A stretch of 64,000 bases of DNA from an uncultured Planctomycetota bacterium. Its GTDB lineage: Bacteria; Planctomycetota; Phycisphaerae; SM23-33. The translations under genes were made by a program, and so were the position numbers. The stretch is from contig CAITIS010000057.1 in the NCBI GenBank assembly GCA_903892515.1, forward strand, positions 143,067 through 207,066, in the 5' to 3' direction. Shown here one piece after another: positions 15,246-49,764 of the stretch (positions are counted from its first letter, which is position 1; each line of letters starts with the position of its first letter). The notes below the pieces were generated by a model. The model ran no database searches and was not told the DNA's origin. It saw only the letters and a list, made by a program, of their open reading frames with translations.

Positions 15246-15425
15246 GCGGGAAGGTCAACCATTCTCATTGCGCCCCGCGTTCGACGAGTCCACGAGTTCA
15301 CGGACTCACGAGTTCACGGATTCACGAACCCACGAATTCCTTCCCCGCCGGTTCGCTTGCCGGCCATTTTGTGTTATGGTTTTGCCCTTAACGAATCGCA
15401 CTCGAATCCCTGGGAGTATTCACGA

Positions 15426-15944
15426 ATGACGACCGAAGAACTGGCCAAGCGGGTCAAGGCCGTGGCGTATCTGGAAGGCGACTTTCTGTTGCGCAGCGGC
15501 AAGCGGAGCCGTTTCTACCTGGACAAGTACCTCTTTGAGACCACGCCGGACATCCTGGCGGAGATGGGCCGGCGGATGGGCGCGTTCGCGGGCGATGCCG
15601 ACATGATCGCCGGGCCCGAACTGGGCGCGGTGGCCCTGGCGGCGGCAACGTCCATGGCGACGGGCAAGCCCTTTACCATCGTGCGCAAAGCCGCCAAGGA
15701 GTACGGCACCAGCAAGCTCATCGAGGGCACGCCGGTGGCGGGCAAGAAGGTGCTGCTGGTGGAAGACGTCGGCACCACGGCCGGGGCTGCTCTGGAGGCG
15801 GCCAAGGTGCTGGTGGCGGCCGGTGCGACCATCACGCGGCTGGTCTTCGCCATCGACCGCATGGAAGGCGCCCGCGAAAACGTCCAGGCCGCCGGGTATG
15901 AATTCCAGGCCGTCCTGAACGCCAAAGACCTGGGAATCAAATAG
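15426..15944 (+). CDS. pyrE: Orotate phosphoribosyltransferase
   Basis: GDFLLRSGKRSRFYLDK, IVRKAAKEYGT, PRPP loop LLVEDVGTTAG. Confidence 0.93.
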   Translation: MTTEELAKRVKAVAYLEGDFLLRSGKRSRFYLDKYLFETTPDILAEMGRRMGAFAGDADMIAGPELGAVALAAATSMATGKPFTIVRKAAKEYGTSKLIEGTPVAGKKVLLVEDVGTTAGAALEAAKVLVAAGATITRLVFAIDRMEGARENVQAAGYEFQAVLNAKDLGIK

Positions 15945-24198: not shown

Positions 24199-24453
24199 GC
24201 CGACTTACCTTTGTCTTTCAAAACCATCATACGACCAGGCCGGCCAACGCGGCCCAGCCCTTCCGCTTGTGGCAACAGCATCTCCACCGGGGCGGAAAAG
24301 ATCCGTATTCTAGCGACTCGCCCGACGGAGGCAAGAGGATTTTCTCCGGCCGTGTGGCGCCATTTTGTCGTGCCTTGTCCGCGCCCCGAGGCGGCTTGGC
24401 CTTGCTCTGGGCGGTCCGTAAAGGGTATTCTAGGGCTTTACAGTCGAGGTTCC

Positions 24454-25785
24454 ATGACCGGAATTACACTCCAGCAGATTGCCCAGGCCGGCGTAGTGGG
24501 TTCGGGCGGGGCGGGTTTTCCCACCCACGTCAAACTCGCCGCCAAGGCCGACACCGTCATTATCAACGCTGCCGAGTGCGAGCCGCTGTTGCATAAGGAT
24601 AAGGAAGTCCTGCGCCGCTTTGCCCCTTCCGTGCTCTCGGGCCTGGCCGCGGCGATGGAACTTACCGGCGCCACGCAGGGCATCATCGGCATCAAGGAAA
24701 AGTACCACGACCTGATCGAGACGCTCACGCCCATGCTGCAAGGCGGCACGCGCATCAAAGCCCTGCCCGACGCCTACCCAGCCGGCGATGAGTTCATCCT
24801 GGTCTATGAAGTTCTTGGCCGGGTGATTCCGCCGGGCGGCATTCCGCTGCACGTCGGGGCCGTGGTGATGAACGTCGAGACCGCGTACAACGTGGCCCAG
24901 TCGCCGCGCCAGGCCGTGGTCGAGAAATTCGTATCGGTGGCCGGCGCGGTGGCCAGCCCGATGACGCTGCGCGTGCCCGTGGGCGTAAGCCTGGCCCAGT
25001 GCATTGCCGCCGCGGGCGGGACAACGGCCGAACACCCGGTGCTGATCGTCGGCGGCGTGATGATGGGGCGGATCGAAGATAACCCCAGCGCCGTGGTGGA
25101 CAAGACTACCGGGGCGGTGATCGTGCTGCCGGCGGATCATTATGTAGTGCGGCGGCATCGGCGGACGTGGAGCCACGCCGCCCGCATTGGCCGAAGCGCC
25201 TGCGACCAGTGCAGCTTCTGCACCGAACTGTGCCCGCGGTACCTGCTGGGACATCCCATCCAGCCGCACCGGGCCATGCGCAGCCCGGGCTTTAACAAGG
25301 TCGGCCAGGCCGACGTGACGGGCACGCTGTTCTGCTGCGAGTGCAACCTGTGCAGCATGTACGCCTGCCCTGAGGACCTCGACCCGCGCAGCGTCTGCGG
25401 CCAGAACAAGCGCCGGCTGATGGGCGAAGGCACGAAGTGGCCCGACGCGCCGTTCAACGGCACGCGGCCTGACCTGCTGATGAAGAACCGCAAGGCCCCG
25501 ACGGCCCGGCTGATACGCAAACTGGGCTTGAGCGGGTTCAACAACGTCGGCCCGCTGACCGAAGAATTGCTGTCGACGCGGCGCGTGGGCATCAAGCTCA
25601 AGCAGCATGTGGGCGCGCCCTGCCAGGCCACCGTGGCGGTGGGGCAGAAGGTCGCGCGTGGCCAGGTCGTCGGCGAGCGGGCCATGAGCGAGGGCAAGCC
25701 CGCCCTGGGCGCCCCCGTGCATGCGTCCATCGACGGGGCGGTAACGGCCATCACTGACGGCGTCATCTGGATTGAACAGCGGTAG
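24454..25785 (+). CDS. pduS: PduS/RnfC-like flavin Fe-S oxidoreductase (BMC-associated)
   Basis: AGVVGSGGAGFPTHVK, INAAECEPLL, YPAGDE, SLBB, CDQCSFCTELCP and CCECNLC...CP clusters, KQHVGAP...HASIDG. Confidence 0.85.
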   Translation: MTGITLQQIAQAGVVGSGGAGFPTHVKLAAKADTVIINAAECEPLLHKDKEVLRRFAPSVLSGLAAAMELTGATQGIIGIKEKYHDLIETLTPMLQGGTRIKALPDAYPAGDEFILVYEVLGRVIPPGGIPLHVGAVVMNVETAYNVAQSPRQAVVEKFVSVAGAVASPMTLRVPVGVSLAQCIAAAGGTTAEHPVLIVGGVMMGRIEDNPSAVVDKTTGAVIVLPADHYVVRRHRRTWSHAARIGRSACDQCSFCTELCPRYLLGHPIQPHRAMRSPGFNKVGQADVTGTLFCCECNLCSMYACPEDLDPRSVCGQNKRRLMGEGTKWPDAPFNGTRPDLLMKNRKAPTARLIRKLGLSGFNNVGPLTEELLSTRRVGIKLKQHVGAPCQATVAVGQKVARGQVVGERAMSEGKPALGAPVHASIDGAVTAITDGVIWIEQR

Positions 25786-26003
25786 GCGTGGCCGCGTTAG
25801 GTATTGAGTTGCGTCAGGCATTGAATCGCGTCAGGACATAGATAGAGCCGCAAGACGACGCGGCTCAACCTATGGCACCCTTGCCGGCTCAACCTATGGC
25901 ACCCGCGTGTGAAAGATGGGTGCCATGGTCTGACTCGACCGAGCCGAAGGCGAGATTGAGGCTGACCATGCAAGACGATAAGTTCGCTTCTGAAGGTGAA
26001 TGA

Positions 26004-26564
26004 ATGAGTAATCAGCGATCGATCGGTGCGATTGAACTGTCCTCTGTGGCTGTGGGCTATCGGGTGCAGGATGAACTGCTCAAGGCCGCGACGGTGGAGA
26101 TCGTCATCGCGCGGACGATCTGCTCGGGCAAGTACCTCATCGTCTATACCGGTGGGGTCAGCGATGTCCGCTCCGCCACCGACGCCGGCCTGCGGGCCTC
26201 CGGCGAGGCCATTATCGACCACCTGATCCTGCCGACGGTGCACGAGTCGGTCTTTCCGGCCTTGACGCAGTCGGTCGTGCTCAACGAAAAGAACCCGCAG
26301 GCCCTGGGCGTCGTCGAGAGCTTCTCGGGCGTCTCGATCATCGCCGCCGCCGATGCCGCCGCCAAGGCCGCCGATGTCCAACTCTTCCGCATCCACGTGG
26401 CCATGGCGCTGGGTGGCAAGGGATTCTGCCTCATGACCGGCACGCTGGCCGACGTGACCTCAGGCGTAGCCACCGCCGCCGATGAAGTCCGCAAGCGCGG
26501 CCTGCTGGTCAACGACGTAGTCATCGCCCAGCCCAGCCGCGAACTCTTTGCCGAGTACGTTTGA
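26004..26564 (+). CDS. pduT: Tandem-domain microcompartment shell protein (BMC-T, PduT-like)
   Basis: IGAIELSSV...DELLKAA, TICSGKY (Fe-S ligand Cys), second domain AADAAAKAA...LGGKG. Confidence 0.88.
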   Translation: MSNQRSIGAIELSSVAVGYRVQDELLKAATVEIVIARTICSGKYLIVYTGGVSDVRSATDAGLRASGEAIIDHLILPTVHESVFPALTQSVVLNEKNPQALGVVESFSGVSIIAAADAAAKAADVQLFRIHVAMALGGKGFCLMTGTLADVTSGVATAADEVRKRGLLVNDVVIAQPSRELFAEYV

Positions 26565-26799
26565 ACGGCAGGGCGTAGGGCATAGGGCGGAGGAAAGAGA
26601 AAAGACGTCCGCAGGGTGGCATGGTCACGCTGTTCGCGTGACCATGTGAGGACGCATCACGCAACCCTGCGCTCTGCGCCGAATCAGGTGCCGTGGCTTG
26701 CGAGTGAAGCGAGCAACCACGTTCGCACACGGGGGCACGCGTCCCGAATCGTTCCCCACGGTTCCAATCGGTCCATCGTATAATTATTCACGTCTCATA

Positions 26800-26843
26800 T
26801 TGACAAAAATATCTCATGGTGTATCATTACTGTAGTGATACAC
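26800..26843 (+). promoter_or_regulatory. Sigma70 promoter with overlapping 25-bp palindromic operator
   Basis: TTGACA-N16-TATCAT; GTGTATCATTAC-T-GTAGTGATACAC (11/12 inverted) over the -10. Confidence 0.75.
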
Positions 26844-26860
26844 TAAAGAAGGAGATGCCC

Positions 26861-28456
26861 ATGGGCAAGAAGCCACACAGCCGAAACGGTGCAGGTCAGT
26901 CAGCCAAGGGTTCTTTCAGCCAAGTCGCTAAGGCCCCCTCGGCCAGCGTCGCGCTGGCCAAGTCCGAGCCGGGCGGTTCGCCCAAGCAGGATCTGTTGAC
27001 CATGGAAGAGGCCATCGACCAGCTCAAGACCACCAGGCCGTCGTTCTATCGCTGGTTGCGCGAGGGCAAGATCAAGGGTTTCAAGATCGGCCGGCAGTGG
27101 CGGTTCGAGCGGCAGGACATCGAACGGTTCTTGCAGGGGCTTGGCCCGCGGATCGACCTGCCCGTCAGCCCCGCGCCGCTGGTGCGGCAGTTGGAGGCGA
27201 AGCTCGCTGCCGTCGGCAAGCGCGTCGAGGCGGGACGTTTTCCCGACGATCCCGTGGCCGACGCGGTCTATCTGATGATCGCCCTGGCCTATCACCAGCG
27301 GGCCAGCGACATCCACATAACGCCGCAGTACGAATCGGGCGCGTGGTCGGCCGTCATGCGAACTCGCATCGACGGCGTGCTGCACGTGCAGGCCCAGGCC
27401 GACATCCGCCTGCTGCCGGCGCTAATGGAGCGCTGGAAAAGCCTGGCGGCCATGAGCGGCTTGGACAAGAACATGCCCCAGGATGGCCGGATGACCGTCA
27501 TGGTCGAGGGCACGGAAGCGGATCTTCGCACGTCGATCCTTCCGGCCCAAGGTGGCGAGGCGTTGACGGTGCGGCTGCTGCTGCGGCTTCAGGATCTTCT
27601 GACCTTCGACTTGAACAAGTTTGGCTTCGATCCGGCCGACCTGAAGCGGATCATCGAGGCCGTGCATGCCCCGCACGGCGTCATCGTCTGCAATGGCCCC
27701 TCGGGCAGCGGCAAGACCACGACGCTGTACGCCTGCCTGTCGATGCTGGCCGGGCCGGAGATAAAGACCCTGAGCGTCGAAGACCCGGTGGAATACATCC
27801 TGCCCTGGGTGACGCAAGTCTCGGCGAATTTCCAGGTCGGCCTGGGCTTTGCCCGCGCGGTGCGGGCTTTCCTGCGCTCCGATCCTGACGTCATCATGGT
27901 CGGAGAGATTCGCGACCTGGAGGTACTGGAGACCTGCATCCAGGCGGCCATGACGGGGCACTTGGTGATGACGCAACTTCACGCCACGGACTCGGCCTCG
28001 GCCTTGCGTCGGATGGTTGAGATCGGCTGCAAGCCTTTCATGGTCAGCGACGGCGTCCGGCTGGTCATTTCGCAGCGGCTGATTCGCCGGCTGTGCACCA
28101 AGTGCAGCAAGCCCGTGACGCTATCGGCCGAGGAAGAGGCGATGGTGGCCGAAGGCGCGGTTAGTGGCGGCTTGGCCTTGGCGACGCTGCCGCGCGAGTT
28201 CCGCCAGCCTGTGGGCTGCCCCGAGTGCGCGGGCACCGGGTATCGCGGCAGAGCGGTGGTGGCCGAGACGCTCAAGATCAGCGGCGCGATCGCCAAAGCA
28301 TTGCGTGACGAGGCCAACGTGGACGATCTACGCCGCTTGGCCATCTCCGAAGGCATGACCACCATGCGGGCCGACGGCATCCGCAAGGCCGCCCATGGCT
28401 TCACGTCGCTGCGCGAGGTGCAATGGGTCTGCGGCGCGGTCTGGGAAGGCAAATAA
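26861..28456 (+). CDS. Excisionase-like HTH fused to a PilB/GspE-family ATPase
   Basis: LLTMEEAIDQLKTTRPSFYRWLREGKIKGFKIGRQWRF; ASDIHI, RIDGVL, PQDGR, GPSGSGKT, VEDPVE, DPDVIMVGEIRD, TGHLVMTQLH, CxxC...CxxC. Confidence 0.88.
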   Translation: MGKKPHSRNGAGQSAKGSFSQVAKAPSASVALAKSEPGGSPKQDLLTMEEAIDQLKTTRPSFYRWLREGKIKGFKIGRQWRFERQDIERFLQGLGPRIDLPVSPAPLVRQLEAKLAAVGKRVEAGRFPDDPVADAVYLMIALAYHQRASDIHITPQYESGAWSAVMRTRIDGVLHVQAQADIRLLPALMERWKSLAAMSGLDKNMPQDGRMTVMVEGTEADLRTSILPAQGGEALTVRLLLRLQDLLTFDLNKFGFDPADLKRIIEAVHAPHGVIVCNGPSGSGKTTTLYACLSMLAGPEIKTLSVEDPVEYILPWVTQVSANFQVGLGFARAVRAFLRSDPDVIMVGEIRDLEVLETCIQAAMTGHLVMTQLHATDSASALRRMVEIGCKPFMVSDGVRLVISQRLIRRLCTKCSKPVTLSAEEEAMVAEGAVSGGLALATLPREFRQPVGCPECAGTGYRGRAVVAETLKISGAIAKALRDEANVDDLRRLAISEGMTTMRADGIRKAAHGFTSLREVQWVCGAVWEGK

Positions 28457-28862
28457 TGTTCTGGAAGCACGCTTTACTGGGTGCCATAGGTTGAGTCGGC
28501 AAGGGTGCCATAGGTTGAGCCGCGCTGTCTGGCGGCTCTACCTATGCCGGGGGTGCCGTGGCCGCGGCGTCCAGCGGCCACGCCGGTAGTGCTATGCTTG
28601 ACGTCGGGCATAGGCAGTCCCGCCTTCGCAAGAAAGCGCGAAGCCGTGCCAGCCTATGGCACCCAGCTATGCCACCTACCCATGACCCACCTGTGGCATC
28701 CACCGCTCCAGTGGGTGGCATGGTCACCCTTTCGTTGGGGTGACCATGTGTGGACCCGCTAAGGGAACTTTTCGTCTGAACATGGTCACGCGAACAGCGC
28801 GACCATGCCACCCAGCTATGCCACCCGTCCCAGGGAAGAATACTGCCGTCGCGGGCGCAAGT

Positions 28863-28889
28863 TAAACCATCTCGCAAAACTTCCGATAA
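28863..28889 (+). promoter_or_regulatory. Sigma28 (FliA)-type promoter
   Basis: TAAA-N15-TCCGATAA. Confidence 0.65.
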
Positions 28890-28933
28890 TAGACTTTGGG
28901 TCAAGATCGGGCTTCCGGAGAGGAAGTCACTAG

Positions 28934-29773
28934 ATGATGGTTAGTGCTCTCGCTACGTCTGCGGGCGTCCTGGTGGACGCTCTGACAGGTCGGCCCAGGC
29001 TGCGCGCAGCCGGGTGCGAGGTAATTCATCTGCGCCTGGCGCTGCCCGGTGGGCCCATGGCGTTCCATCTGGCTGCGCCGGAGCGGCCGGTTCGCCTGAG
29101 CGAACTGGTCCCCGTGTGCCGGTACCTGTCGAGTCAGATCATGCAATCCGCCGTGCACGATGCCGGCGCGACCGGCGAGAGCGTCGCCTGCCGCAAGGGC
29201 TGCTCGGCCTGCTGCCACTATCTCGTGCCGCTGTCGGTGCCCGAGTCCTTATGGTTGTACGAGCACGTCCAGGCCTTGCCGTCGGCGCGGCGCCGCACGG
29301 TCATGCGGGCTTTTACGGTTGCGGCCGCAAAGCTGTTTTCCGGCGGCCGGTTGCCCATGCTTTCCAGCCAGGACAGCCAGAGCGAAGAAATCGGCCGCGT
29401 TTCTGAGTGGTACCGGGCGCTGGATTTGGCCTGCCCGCTCCTGCGCGAGCACCTGTGCTCGGTCTACGCCACCAGGCCGCTGGCGTGCCGCGAGCACGTG
29501 ATGCTGACCGATCCTTCGGGCTGCACCAACCCTTCGGCCACGGCCGGGCAGCGGGTGATCATGCCCGCGAGCCTGGTGAATTGCCTGGCCGAAGTGACGG
29601 CCGAGCTGGAGCAGCGGCCGATCGAGTCGGTCCTGCTGCCCCTGACGATGCACTGGGTGCGGGCCAACCTGGGCCGATTCCGCCACACCTGGCCGGCGCC
29701 GCTGCTGGTGAAGATGCTGGCAGAACGCCTCACCGCGGCTGTGAGGGCGGCTGAAGCTTCCGGCAAGCTGTAA
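28934..29773 (+). CDS. YkgJ/FliB-like CxxxCxxCC cysteine-cluster protein
   Basis: CRKGCSACC, CPLL....CSVYATRPLACR. Confidence 0.8.
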   Translation: MMVSALATSAGVLVDALTGRPRLRAAGCEVIHLRLALPGGPMAFHLAAPERPVRLSELVPVCRYLSSQIMQSAVHDAGATGESVACRKGCSACCHYLVPLSVPESLWLYEHVQALPSARRRTVMRAFTVAAAKLFSGGRLPMLSSQDSQSEEIGRVSEWYRALDLACPLLREHLCSVYATRPLACREHVMLTDPSGCTNPSATAGQRVIMPASLVNCLAEVTAELEQRPIESVLLPLTMHWVRANLGRFRHTWPAPLLVKMLAERLTAAVRAAEASGKL

Positions 29774-41970: not shown

Positions 41971-42601
41971 CGCTGGCCGCGCCGGAGGAACGGGCCGCCG
42001 ATAGCGACGCTAACCACAAAGGCACAAAGAAGCGCCGCCACAAAGGGCACAAAGAACAGGCGAAGACTTCGAACCGGTTTCATACCCGGTTTGCCTCGTG
42101 GCACAGCCGCCCTCGGCTGTGGTCTTTGGTCGCCGGGCGTCTCGCCCGCGCGGGCAGTCTTGCCCACCTTACCTCGCCGACGCTGGCATAGGTAGAGCCG
42201 CAGGACAACGCGGCTCAACCTATGGCACCCATAGCCGGATGGGTGGCATGGTCACGCTGTTCGCGTGACCATGTGAGGATCTTCCACGCGGAGGACCTTC
42301 CACGCGGCGCTGCGTCTCCCCGTCTTCGTGGCACAGCCGCCCTCGGCTGTGGCTGTTGCGGCCAGATCAATGTCTTCTCGCGCGGTTTCACGCCCGAGGG
42401 CGGGCGTGCCACGGGTATGAAATCAGTTCTCACATTGGCTTCATGTCCTTCGTGGCTTTTCGCATTCTCGGCCTTTCTCTGTGCCTCCGTGGCAAAAGCT
42501 GTTGCCTTGTTCCGCGCCCCCGTTTTGTTTTGGCGTTTTCGTCATTGCGTGCCACAATGTCGCCTGGAGTGACGGCTGACAGATCGGCCAGGAGGCGCCT
42601 C

Positions 42602-44401
42602 ATGACGGAGCGGCTGTACACAATACATCAGGTGGCACGGATGCTCGGCGCCGACACCCGCGAAGTGGCCCAGTGGATGCAGAAATCCTGGCTGCCGTTT
42701 CGCCGGCTGCCGGAAGGCACGCTGAGAATTTCCGAGACCAACCTCATCGAATTCCTCAAAGGCCAGGGCATCGACATCCGCGATGTGCTGGGCCCCAATG
42801 CGCCGCAAACCGGCGATCTTGTGGACACCCCCGCGCCAACCACGCCGGAGCGCCCATCCGAGCGGCCGATGGCGCCGGCCCGGCCGGAGTTGGTGGCACA
42901 GGCGGGAATCGGGAATCGGGAATCGGGAAGCCGGAATCCGGAAGTCGGAATCGGGAGTCGGGAATCGGGAAGCTGGAAATCGGAAGCCGGAAGCCGGAAT
43001 CTGGAATCCGGGGTGCAGGGTCGGGCAACGACCGTGACACCGTCTGAGGCCGCGGCGCCCGTCTTGGCCATCGAAGCGAAAGATACGATCGAGGATTTGG
43101 AGGCGGCGGAACTCCGCGCCGAGGACGAGCTGGCCGAGTTGAAGAATGAATCCCGAGTGACGGAAGAATCCCCAGCGCCGGCCGGCGAAATCCAGGCCGC
43201 ACGCGTCGGGTCGGAAACATCTGGGCAGACCGCCCCGACGCCCGGCGACGCCGCGGCGCAACTGGCCCAGGCCATCTTCCGTGAAGCCCTGGCGCGAAAC
43301 GCTGAAGAGATCCACCTCGATGCCGACGGATCGGGGCTGAATCTGCGCATGCGCATTGACGGCGTGCTGCAAGGCCGCGGCGCGCTTCAGGGCCGACTGG
43401 ATGCTGCCGTGGCTCCGCAGCTTTTGGCACACCTGAAGTTTCTGGCCGGAGTGGACGTTTCATCCCGTGGCTTGCAGCGGGGGCGATTCTCCAGCCTGCT
43501 GGATGGCTCGGCCCAGGAGTTCGAACTCATCGCTTGCCCGGTCCGTCACGGCGAACGGCTGACGCTGCACGTGCTGGACAGCCAACGTGGCCTGATGAGC
43601 TTGGCCGACCTTGGCTTGGAGAGCGCCGACGAGCGACGGCTTCGCGGCCTGCTGCGGACGGCGGGGGCGATGATCCTGCTGGTCGGGCCGCCGCGGAGCG
43701 GCAAGAGCACGACGCTGCGGGCGATGGTGGCCGACCGGGCCGATCCGTCGCGCCTGGTGGCGCTGCTGGAGGCGGGCCCAAGTGCATTCGTGCCCGATGT
43801 TGCCCAGGCCACGGTCGATGCGGCGGCGGGTTTTGGCATGGCTTCGGCCGTGCAAGCCTTCGCCGCCCAGGACGCGGACATGATCGCTGCTTGCGACGTG
43901 CCCGATGCCGCCACTTGCGCCGAACTGCTCAGGAGCGCCCAGGCCGGTGCGACGGTGCTGGCAGCGCTGAATGCCCCCGACTGCGTGGCGGGCCTGGGGC
44001 GGTTGTGGGAAGTCGGTCTGGAGCGCTGGGCGACGGCGGCGAGCCTCTCGGCCATCATCACGCAGCGGACGCTCCGGCGGCTTTGTCCGGAGTGCCGGCG
44101 GCCGGTCGTGGCGGCAGAGATCCCGCCGCGCTGGGAGGCGATGCTCGAAGGCCGCGGCCCGATCTTCACGGCCTTAGGGTGCGAGCGGTGCGGCAAGAGC
44201 GGCTACTCTGGCCGGACGGGCGTATTCTCGATCCTCCATGTAGATTCTGCGTTGGGGGCGATGATCCGCCACGGCGCCGACGCGCAGGCCCTGGCGGACG
44301 CCGCGACGAGCTTTGAGTCGCTCGTCCAGGCCGGCCTAAAGAAGGTGCTGGCCGGCGAGACCTCGCTGGAGGAGTTGGATCGCGTGCTGCCGATGGCGTA
44401 G
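42602..44401 (+). CDS. Excisionase-like HTH fused to a degenerate PilB/GspE-family ATPase
   Basis: LYTIHQVARMLG...W...LP...GTLRI; AEEIHL, RIDGVL, Walker A GPPRSGKST, CPEC...CERC, GYSGRTG; Walker B and His box altered. Confidence 0.82.
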   Translation: MTERLYTIHQVARMLGADTREVAQWMQKSWLPFRRLPEGTLRISETNLIEFLKGQGIDIRDVLGPNAPQTGDLVDTPAPTTPERPSERPMAPARPELVAQAGIGNRESGSRNPEVGIGSRESGSWKSEAGSRNLESGVQGRATTVTPSEAAAPVLAIEAKDTIEDLEAAELRAEDELAELKNESRVTEESPAPAGEIQAARVGSETSGQTAPTPGDAAAQLAQAIFREALARNAEEIHLDADGSGLNLRMRIDGVLQGRGALQGRLDAAVAPQLLAHLKFLAGVDVSSRGLQRGRFSSLLDGSAQEFELIACPVRHGERLTLHVLDSQRGLMSLADLGLESADERRLRGLLRTAGAMILLVGPPRSGKSTTLRAMVADRADPSRLVALLEAGPSAFVPDVAQATVDAAAGFGMASAVQAFAAQDADMIAACDVPDAATCAELLRSAQAGATVLAALNAPDCVAGLGRLWEVGLERWATAASLSAIITQRTLRRLCPECRRPVVAAEIPPRWEAMLEGRGPIFTALGCERCGKSGYSGRTGVFSILHVDSALGAMIRHGADAQALADAATSFESLVQAGLKKVLAGETSLEELDRVLPMA

Positions 44402-48633: not shown

Positions 48634-49764
48634 ATGTATGGCGTTGTGAACATACTGGCGACTTGGCCGCTGGCTTCCTCGGTGAAAGCCCGCTGGCAAG
48701 GCATGAAGACATGGGCGCCCGATTCGAGCGTGCCGGACTGGCTGATCGTGCTGGGCGTGGCCGTGGTAGGTATCGGGGCCGCCAGCCTGGGTTGGTTCTG
48801 GATCTCCCGGCTGCGGCGCGCGCGGGCGGAGTTCCGCGACAGCGCCGGTAAGATCGGCCTGACCGAGACCGAATGCAAAGCACTGCTGAACCTCGTTCGC
48901 CTGGCCAAGCTGAAGGACCCGCTGGCGATCTTCACCTCCGCCGAGGCGTTTCGCGTCGGCCAGGAAGCGTTCCTCAACAGCCCGTCCATGCAGACGGCCC
49001 CGTCCAACGTCATCGAGGGCACGGGGCGGTTCCTGTCCGGGCTGCGCGAGAAGATGAAGTACGTCCTGTCCGAAGAGGACAGTCGCAGGAGCATCGGCGA
49101 CACGCGGCGGATTCAGCCAGGGGCGACACTGTCGATCCAGACGCCCAAAGGCGCCATGCTGGGCGCCACGTTGCGAATCAACCAGCTTAACGGCCTGGAG
49201 GTCGAGACGGAATCCGCCGGCCCGCTGGCGGTGCGCCAGAACGTAACGGTTCGTTTCGCGGATCCCCTCAGCACGTGGGAGTTCACCAGCGTCGTCACCA
49301 TGGTCAGCGGCACGACGGTGAGGTTGACGCATTCGACTAACTTGCACTTCCTGAGTCGGCGGCGCTACCCGCGCGTGCAGATTCAGCGGCCGGCCAGTGC
49401 GGCCGAGCTTCCGTTTGTAGGCGAGTCGCATCAGCGGCCGGAGTTCGTGCCGGCCGAACTGACGGAAATCGCCGGGCCGGGAATGCGGCTCAAGGCCCCG
49501 CTGCACCCAGCCGTGGGAGACCGGCTGATGGTCGTGGTGAATTTCGATGAAACCAGGAATGTCTCCTCCGTCGGCACCGTTCGGCGGATCGTGTCGGACG
49601 AGCCTGCGGTATGCGAATTCGCTGTCGAACTCAGCGGGCTTAGCCGAGAGGAACTGACCGAACTGGTGCGCGAGACGAATCAGGCGGCGTGCGAGGCGGC
49701 CGGCAAGTCCGGCGCGCCCAAGGTGGAACTTCGACCCAGCCAGGCCGAAGCGGTGAGGAGTTAG
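48634..49764 (+). CDS. Membrane-anchored PilZ-domain protein (YcgR/flagellar-brake-like)
   Basis: N-terminal TM; RRRYPRV followed by EIAGPGM; lies between flgE and flgF. Confidence 0.7.
   Translation: MYGVVNILATWPLASSVKARWQGMKTWAPDSSVPDWLIVLGVAVVGIGAASLGWFWISRLRRARAEFRDSAGKIGLTETECKALLNLVRLAKLKDPLAIFTSAEAFRVGQEAFLNSPSMQTAPSNVIEGTGRFLSGLREKMKYVLSEEDSRRSIGDTRRIQPGATLSIQTPKGAMLGATLRINQLNGLEVETESAGPLAVRQNVTVRFADPLSTWEFTSVVTMVSGTTVRLTHSTNLHFLSRRRYPRVQIQRPASAAELPFVGESHQRPEFVPAELTEIAGPGMRLKAPLHPAVGDRLMVVVNFDETRNVSSVGTVRRIVSDEPAVCEFAVELSGLSREELTELVRETNQAACEAAGKSGAPKVELRPSQAEAVRS

Follow-up and report, generated by a model that had tools for sequence, protein, structure and literature searches.

A PilB/GspE-type ATPase with an excisionase-like helix-turn-helix head and a candidate autoregulatory palindrome in its own promoter

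We analysed a 64-kb stretch of DNA from an uncultured Planctomycetota bacterium (contig CAITIS010000057.1 of assembly GCA_903892515.1, positions 143,067 to 207,066; hereafter the window, whose own positions are used below), in which one gene encoded a PilB/GspE-type ATPase with an excisionase-like helix-turn-helix (HTH) domain in front of its motor. The open reading frame (ORF) of this HTH-ATPase was open at 26816-28456 on the forward strand. Reading of the sequence placed the start at the ATG at 26861, which gave a coding sequence of 26861-28456 (531 residues plus stop), and a ribosome-binding site AAGGAG at 26849-26854 (+), 6 nt 5' of this ATG. From the N- to the C-terminus, the protein comprised a basic tail, an HTH_17/excisionase-type domain (residues 45-93), a short linker, and a PilB/GspE core (residues 130-520). 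Pfam assigned HTH_17 (PF12728) to the head with E 3.3e-13 and 50.1 bits against a cut-off of 27, and T2SSE (PF00437) to the core with E 1.6e-100 over profile positions 6-368 of 370. The excisionase domain TIGR01764 of NCBIfam was also above its cut-off (41.8 vs 28.8 bits). At the same time, no N1-type family (MshEN/T2SSE_N or GSPE_N1E) matched the 531-residue protein in Pfam at E<=0.1, and the gap between the HTH and the N2 domain was 36 residues only. Thus, the replacement of N1 by an Xis-type HTH, as proposed in the initial annotation of this DNA, was borne out by the domain searches. The equivalog models of NCBIfam gave 368.9 bits for PilB (TIGR02538, cut-off 675.65) and 368.1 bits for GspE (TIGR02533, cut-off 630.25), and their alignments started only at model positions 177 and 106, respectively, indicating that the N-terminal third of the canonical enzyme was missing. 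For the identical protein the ESM Atlas held a model with a predicted local distance difference test score (pLDDT) of 0.82 and a predicted template modelling score (pTM) of 0.73, and the ESM Atlas clusters bore automatic names only.

The core, consisting of N2 and the C-terminal ATPase domain (27248-28420, +), had all the motor motifs. Namely, we found the Walker A motif GPSGSGKTT (residues 279-287; 27695-27721, +) with G279, G282, G284, K285 and T287 invariant, the Asp box EDPVE (residues 307-311), the Walker B motif DPDVIMVGEIRD (residues 341-352) with its catalytic Glu present, the His box TGHLVMTQLH (residues 365-374), and the tetracysteine zinc motif C412, C415, C453 and C456 (28094-28228, +), all four cysteines of which were invariant. 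In an alignment of 27 relatives (44-62% overall identity) these motifs were invariant or nearly so, in agreement with the intact motor claimed earlier, and their strict conservation suggested that ATP turnover mattered. The nearest solved structure was Myxococcus PilB (3jc8, E 6.5e-84), matched from about residue 85, followed by Geobacter PilB (5tsg), Thermus PilF (5it5) and Vibrio GspE (4ksr), which were matched from residues 128-139; the E-values to the solved PilB/GspE members ranged from 6.5e-84 to 1e-72. Judging from the sequence, the best reading of the protein was a stand-alone and probably catalytically competent hexameric ATPase of the PilB/GspE type. For the motor's job, work with a partner encoded elsewhere, of either a type-IV filament or a secretion system, was our default guess.

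The tail in front of the HTH (residues 1-44; 26861-26992, +) was basic and of low complexity, and its length and sequence varied among the aligned relatives. In 49 clade members, some of whose starts were crudely called, the residues preceding the HTH (40 at most) contained a median of 7 K+R vs 2 D+E. The HTH itself (residues 45-93; 26993-27139, +) was a winged helix-turn-helix, and the residues F62, Y63, R64, W65, R67, K75, G77, R78, Q79, W80, R81 and F82 were invariant among the 27 relatives. It had been considered that this domain might not be folded, but it was the best-conserved part of the whole protein in the same alignment. Among solved structures, the best match to the head reached only E 0.29; the weak matches 6ama and 6amk, labelled in the database just as 'putative DNA-binding protein', are presumably complexes of BldC with DNA. 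The following linker (residues 94-129; 27140-27247, +), in which G93, P96, P106, L107 and L111 were conserved, probably served as the helix by which the head docks on N2, as transferred from the predicted complex of a split cousin.

Five loci represented such split forms (L159, L161, L162, L163 and L168), in which a separate gene for an HTH plus helix, 106-116 residues long, was followed by a gene for an ATPase lacking N1. In four of the five, the stop codon of the HTH gene overlapped or abutted the ATG of the ATPase gene (ATGA or TAAATG) and the ribosome-binding site was inside the first gene; the translational coupling in L162 was less clear. Some of the split forms had TATCA/TGATA-like promoter repeats of their own. 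Complex prediction for the HTH-ATPase pair of L163 gave 0.66 (median of three runs) vs 0.00 for the best control. Of 78 solved complexes and 108 mismatched pairs, 51 and 2, respectively, came up to this mark. In the L163 runs, the contact agreement was at least 61% and the pLDDT of the partner at least 69. The predicted interface placed the post-HTH helix (residues 76-99) on the initial helices of the ATPase (residues 15-34, 50 and 61-71) and left the HTH free.

The fusion of the two domains was not specific to this assembly. Both PF12728 and PF00437 were present in 120 of the 120 best protein-search matches (46-63% identity), whose few named members came from Phycisphaerae, Planctomycetota, Lentisphaerae and Hydrogenedentota. 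Metagenome contigs were searched with an alignment restricted to the N-terminal part, and 80 loci were kept; a search of genome contigs with the full-length alignment was swamped by ordinary PilB genes matching from about residue 129 and was uninformative here. According to tblastn, in the 80 metagenome loci the HTH continued into the ATPase up to the contig limit, the five split forms excepted. A profile of the N-terminal module identified 375 clusters (50% identity) at E<=1e-10, including many short fragments, and 50 at E<=1e-30. The gene was detected in five of 40 near relatives and in 14 of 300 genomes drawn evenly from the phylum, with one copy apiece, and its distribution was accordingly patchy. 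In viral contigs the HTH-ATPase family was not found, and 54 loci there carried a generic HTH_17 only (at most 43% identity, HTH alone). A sequencing-run search found the stretch in four DNA runs, all from a single study of a lake, and listed no RNA run. Given the 120 relatives, the metagenome loci, the clusters, the 14 genomes and the four runs, the fusion was not an assembly chimera, and the HTH-PilB/GspE proteins form a genuine family that is widespread, mostly in Planctomycetota and neighbouring phyla.

In a tree of the ATPase core, the window protein belonged to a clade of 49 rows with a Shimodaira-Hasegawa-like approximate likelihood ratio test (SH-aLRT) support of 99, apart from the other clades with an HTH and from nine canonical paralogs encoded in the window's genome. 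This was a quick maximum-likelihood tree of 74 rows, for which the careful search was unfinished. In openly available papers we found nothing that linked HTH_17 or excisionase domains with PilB/GspE, and the passages of a 2024 review of PilB retrieved by term search (PMC11656802) did not mention an HTH-bearing PilB. An intact pilus- or secretion-type motor with a DNA-binding domain in place of the docking domain thus seems to be undescribed in this motor family.

A palindrome was found in the gene's own promoter. The -35 hexamer TTGACA (26800-26805, +) and the -10 hexamer TATCAT (26822-26827, +), located by promoter search and reading of the sequence, formed the only sigma-70-like site in 26500-29000 (TTGACA-16 nt-TATCAT, 11/12 matches). 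The -10 hexamer was at the same time the left half-site of an inverted repeat GTGTATCA-N9-TGATACAC at 26819-26843, a putative operator with the core TATCA-N9-TGATA at 26822-26840. This core lay 39 nt before the ATG and overlapped the -10 as well as the likely transcription start, which was placed from the consensus hexamers only. The clade shared the upstream pattern cTTGACA-TATCATAA-N5-TTATGATA-yAyT-(r)TGAy, followed by AAGGAG. When 42 sites were aligned, the palindrome occupied the 17-nt spacer between the TTGACA -35 and the TAyAyT -10 and overlapped the first two bases of the latter, and a third half-site TGA followed about 10 bp after the second (35, 29 and 32 of the 42 sites at its three columns).

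To score mismatches, only the core TATCA-N9-TGATA was used, taking the best match upstream of each gene. Zero, one, two, three and four mismatches occurred in 18, 16, 8, 5 and 2 of the 49 clade loci, respectively, so that 34 of the 49 had at most one; elsewhere in these loci, 616,862 background positions yielded one exact and eight one-mismatch cores. In 16 loci of other HTH-ATPase clades the corresponding counts were 0, 0, 0, 11 and 5. Fourteen genome loci collected later, which were not used to define the motif and were in this sense independent, had zero to three mismatches in 6, 4, 3 and 1 cases (at most one in 10 of the 14), whereas no core with at most one mismatch occurred in 39,285 background positions. 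The palindrome also tracked the recognition helix of the HTH: a core with at most one mismatch was present in 39 of the 49 loci encoding the canonical helix T[TS]RPTFYRW vs six of the 31 with a variant helix, a count from which two loci without the anchor were dropped and in which relatives were not independent.

Outside this promoter, we found little trace of further targets. The exact core in the window was the sole copy both in the 64 kb and in the 4.89-Mb genome (0.65 expected), one-mismatch cores were present at the chance rate (25 vs 25.8 expected), and a position weight matrix (PWM) scan of the genome yielded nothing above a reversed-genome null. In one other genome (G039) the only exact core preceded the HTH-ATPase ortholog, and in another (G066) one of seven did. 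Two genomes (G016 and G105) had no exact core anywhere, their own sites carrying two and one mismatches, and a further one (G174) had a single exact core elsewhere and two mismatches at its own site. An excess of sites beyond the own promoter was not found in the window's genome or in five others. Since a conserved palindrome in the own promoter was combined with a single genomic site, the data pointed to autoregulation and not to a regulon. Accordingly, the transcription control suggested in the initial annotation found support as far as the gene's own promoter was concerned, and not for a wider set of genes.

We therefore propose, with somewhat better than even confidence, that the HTH-ATPase is an autorepressing ATPase whose HTH would bind the palindrome in its own promoter. 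In this scheme, the HTH heads would bind the inverted repeat TATCAtaa-N5-ttaTGATA, usually together with the third half-site, TGA, some 10 bp further downstream, and the bound protein would shut off its own synthesis, the palindrome lying within a strong sigma-70 promoter. The helix behind the HTH would anchor the head on N2. Whether the heads occupy the operator might depend on the nucleotide bound by the hexamer or on its engagement, in analogy to type Ia ParA and to BirA or PutA. We infer that this HTH, rather than another protein, binds the palindrome and that the binding represses transcription; nucleotide or engagement gating of operator binding would be a further step, suggested by the analogy. 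Because the palindrome was built into the promoter of its own gene, repression of the protein's own synthesis was a direct possibility. It was also the simplest explanation given the position in the promoter, the occurrence once per genome, the travel of the site with a patchy gene that had no constant neighbours, and the invariant HTH as the sole constant of the locus.

A bolder version, which we consider rather unlikely, is that a PilB-type hexamer shuttles between the single operator and its work site. Idle motors would repress via two or three of the six heads, engaged or ATP-cycling motors would release the operator, and, bolder still, the loaded ring might act on DNA. If true, this would be the first ATPase of the secretion/pilus family reporting its own occupancy directly to transcription.

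Several points weighed against autorepression. At least two core mismatches were found in 15 of the 49 clade loci and in four of the 14 genome loci, and since relatives were not independent, the counts overstated the support. In the window the palindrome was on the -10, unlike the spacer position in most relatives. The palindrome could be owned by an unlinked regulator, and it was somewhat surprising that the HTH should be so strictly conserved for one site per genome. The model of the L163 complex came from a cousin clade, not from the window protein. Finally, cousins with a dead ATPase kept the HTH, which hinted that regulation, not motor work, was mainly selected.

The genes around the HTH-ATPase gave few indications of a partner. 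A gene for a PduT-like bacterial microcompartment (BMC) shell protein was located 296 nt upstream and a gene for a CxxCxxCC protein 477 nt downstream, followed by a large flagellar/chemotaxis cluster. No platform gene (T2SSF, PilC/GspF) was beside the HTH-ATPase in the window or in five orthologous genome loci, where the neighbours were unrelated and one locus had a prepilin-motif gene 2.3 kb off. Clustering of 1,752 flanking ORFs from 86 loci revealed no neighbour shared across the clade, nor any conserved regulator gene. Platform and pilin families were absent from the neighbour families common to at least three of the 86 loci, some representatives of which were named by Pfam. Integrase or phage genes were not found as neighbours in the window, the five genome loci or the 86-locus clustering. 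Synteny existed within sub-clades only and involved RadC, ABC/MacB and sulfatases; RadC was at most 2.6 kb upstream in five loci of the clade. In the genome as a whole, T2SSE was matched 19 times, and there were about ten genes for platform proteins. As stated in the initial annotation, pilT and pilC were about 25 kb away, namely upstream at 23-586 (truncated by the window start) and 598-1830. They could hardly be taken as partners, however, since this pair was already adjoined by its own canonical PilB with a frame of 655 residues. The suggested tethering of DNA to a pilus or uptake machine likewise lacked support for this clade, because pilus, platform and competence genes were not conserved neighbours.

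A hint of DNA uptake did exist in a cousin clade (L167, L170, L171, L177 and L183), whose HTH-ATPases were 36-38% identical to the window protein. There, a divergent comEC gene (Competence plus DUF4131) was directly upstream in five of the six loci with enough flank, and these comEC genes were 59-66% identical to each other. The linkage belonged to the cousins, which were on the other side of the tree, grouped with canonical paralogs (SH-aLRT 99 in the quick tree), and TATCA-N9-TGATA was not found upstream of their HTH-ATPases.

A second HTH-T2SSE fusion was present in the window itself at 42356-44401 (+), between cheB and fliK, with a probable start at 42557 or 42602. It contained a sub-threshold HTH_17 (E 4.9e-4, residues 87-137 of the long frame), an acidic Pro-rich linker of about 170 residues, and a T2SSE core. 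In this core, Walker A and the four cysteines were kept, and the Asp box, the Glu of Walker B and the two histidines of the His box were gone. On the same contig, about 126 kb downstream and outside the window, we observed a cluster resembling a type II secretion system (T2SS) without an ATPase gene (L261, G000:C57:296038-304429). It comprised six genes, namely gspF, gspG, gspH, gspK (encoding HHH_3), one resembling PilM_2 and a further one, and adjoined a gene for a XerC/D-type integrase.

These observations bear on four other explanations. The protein might be a dedicated ATP-dependent transcription regulator, in which the PilB-like hexamer would be the sensor or switch and further genes would be controlled via sites degenerate enough to escape the scans used here. 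The HTH as the most conserved part of the protein, the solitary gene with no platform gene adjoining, and the paralog in the flagellar/chemotaxis cluster that had lost its catalytic residues and kept its HTH would all agree with this. We nevertheless consider it unlikely, because the genome held one exact site with one-mismatch sites at chance, the PWM scan gave no excess over its null, recurrent extra sites were not found in five other genomes, and the catalytic and zinc-motif residues of the HTH-ATPase were all invariant, as in working assembly ATPases. It was quite unlikely, too, that another regulator owned the palindrome while the HTH and the basic tail held the ATPase on DNA or the nucleoid generally, or contacted a protein. 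The palindrome went with the canonical helix and was rare with variant ones, no regulator gene was among the conserved neighbours, and a unique site would require the owner to be a one-target regulator travelling with a patchy gene. The K/R-rich tail did suggest non-specific DNA affinity, and HTH_17 was a widespread domain (14,526 proteins at E<=0.001).

The remaining two explanations concerned the work of the motor. The HTH-ATPase could be the missing motor of the T2SS-like cluster described above, an idea compatible with autoregulation. The cluster lacked a T2SSE gene, although genes for a platform protein, pseudopilins, GspK and a PilM-like protein were all there, and few assembly-type ATPases other than the HTH-ATPase had no platform gene to themselves. 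However, orthologs of GspK (42-51% identity) were present in at least 12 relatives where our query did not find the HTH-ATPase, so the cluster and the ATPase did not travel together. Additionally, the N1 domain, which binds GspL/PilM in canonical systems, was missing here. We consider this very unlikely. Even less probable in our view was a DNA-handling motor, in which the HTH would load the hexamer onto DNA that is to be taken up or translocated, for example in competence. The only specific site was exactly on the own promoter, which is a signature of autoregulation. The comEC genes adjoining the HTH-ATPases of the cousin clade favoured such a motor, but this clade was across the tree and had no palindrome, and the comEC of the window's own genome was on a different contig. 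Further points in its favour were the nearby RadC genes in five clade loci and a weak NCBIfam match of the HTH-ATPase to the archaeal branch-migration ATPase PINA (E 0.0054), which we take as an example of action on DNA by a relative of this fold.

Autorepression by the HTH-ATPase can be compared with several known systems. In type IV pili and type II secretion, the assembly ATPase is seen as a motor of the cytoplasmic membrane and nothing else, controlled by an N-terminal domain that binds cyclic di-GMP or partner proteins. Similar to PilB, GspE and PilF, the HTH-ATPase had N2 and the C-terminal core, all motor motifs, and the tetracysteine of assembly (not retraction) ATPases. In contrast to them, it had a basic tail and HTH_17 where N1 stands, scored at about half of the equivalog cut-offs (369 bits vs 676 and 630), was not beside platform, pilin or PilM/GspL genes, had a palindrome in its own promoter, and belonged to a separate clade. 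Three defining features of PilB/GspE, the N1 domain, the equivalog score and the linkage to platform genes, were thus not shared by the HTH-ATPase.

With HTH_17/excisionase proteins (MerR-like; Xis/AlpA-type), the head shared the winged HTH and the signature ..Y.W...G.i...k.Gr.WRF, and the third half-site, which repeated the second in direct orientation at a distance of about 10 bp, was reminiscent of their head-to-tail binding. Unlike in those proteins, the HTH here was fused or coupled to a motor ATPase of 400 residues, had no integrase or recombination module, and was not on phages. MerR-type activators likewise have a palindrome within the -35/-10 spacer, as in our 42-site alignment. However, their spacer is over-long (19-20 bp) and has to be distorted by the regulator, whereas the window had a spacer of 16 nt and most relatives one of 17 nt. 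MerR activators also have a coiled-coil and an effector domain at the C-terminus, and a MerR C-terminal domain was not found in the HTH-ATPase with Pfam.

The closest functional parallels were enzymes with an HTH of their own. In type Ia ParA, BirA and PutA the N-terminal HTH represses the own promoter via a palindromic operator, and in type Ia ParA the nucleotide state selects between the repressor and the motor role. The HTH-ATPase resembled type Ia ParA (P1 ParA, F SopA), BirA and PutA as an enzyme or ATPase with its own N-terminal HTH, for which self-repression is proposed here. Its ATPase fold was unrelated, and it differed from ParA, a dimer with a deviant Walker A, in being predicted to form a hexamer of the PilT/GspE-type additional-strand catalytic-glutamate (ASCE) class, and it had no operon partner gene. 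Enhancer-binding proteins for sigma-54 (NtrC/FleQ) are also ring ATPases displaying several HTHs. Nevertheless, they belong to the AAA+ class, carry their Fis-type HTH at the C-terminus and act at sigma-54 promoters, whereas the HTH-ATPase had the T2SSE fold and an N-terminal HTH, and its promoter was a near-consensus sigma-70 promoter that needs no activator.

Among the secretion ATPases, the HTH-ATPase thus represents a genuine variant, widespread yet uncharacterised, for which a concrete candidate site of autoregulation can be named. In this branch, which appeared catalytically intact from its conserved motifs, the control domain was a DNA-binding head with an identifiable putative target of 19-21 bp in the own promoter. 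One protein and one site would make a simple system for studying how a motor ATPase is coupled to gene expression, with nucleotide gating possibly as in ParA. Related architectures, including the split, comEC-adjacent, Clp_N-fused, GNAT-fused and dead-ATPase forms, are labelled plain 'GspE/PilB' in databases. Two of these (L179 and L181) were Clp_N-HTH_17-T2SSE proteins with two Clp_N repeats, 633 and 656 residues long, and a protein of 794 residues (P0032) had an added GNAT acetyltransferase. Four other proteins of 280-556 residues (P0232, P0241, P0229 and P0250) had four to six tandem HTH_17 modules close to the head of the HTH-ATPase.

A few minor features of the window remain to be described. 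Directly upstream of the HTH-ATPase, 24430-26564 contained an RnfC/PduS-like flavoprotein gene and the PduT-like tandem-BMC shell gene, and no other microcompartment genes were in view. Inverted repeats resembling repetitive extragenic palindromic (REP) elements, 25837-25904/28479-28546 and 26611-26654/28773-28816, bracketed the BMC-shell and ATPase genes. The 68-nt flanking repeats were considered as ends of a cassette, and this was rejected because the REP-like element was dispersed: the two repeats gave 339 and 103 blastn matches on 64 and 42 contigs, respectively. Similarly, the ORF at 15357-15944 was considered as ComFC and rejected, as it was PyrE. Within the flagellar cluster, a gene for a PilZ-domain protein, possibly a YcgR-like brake, was located at 48634-49764 between flgE and flgF.

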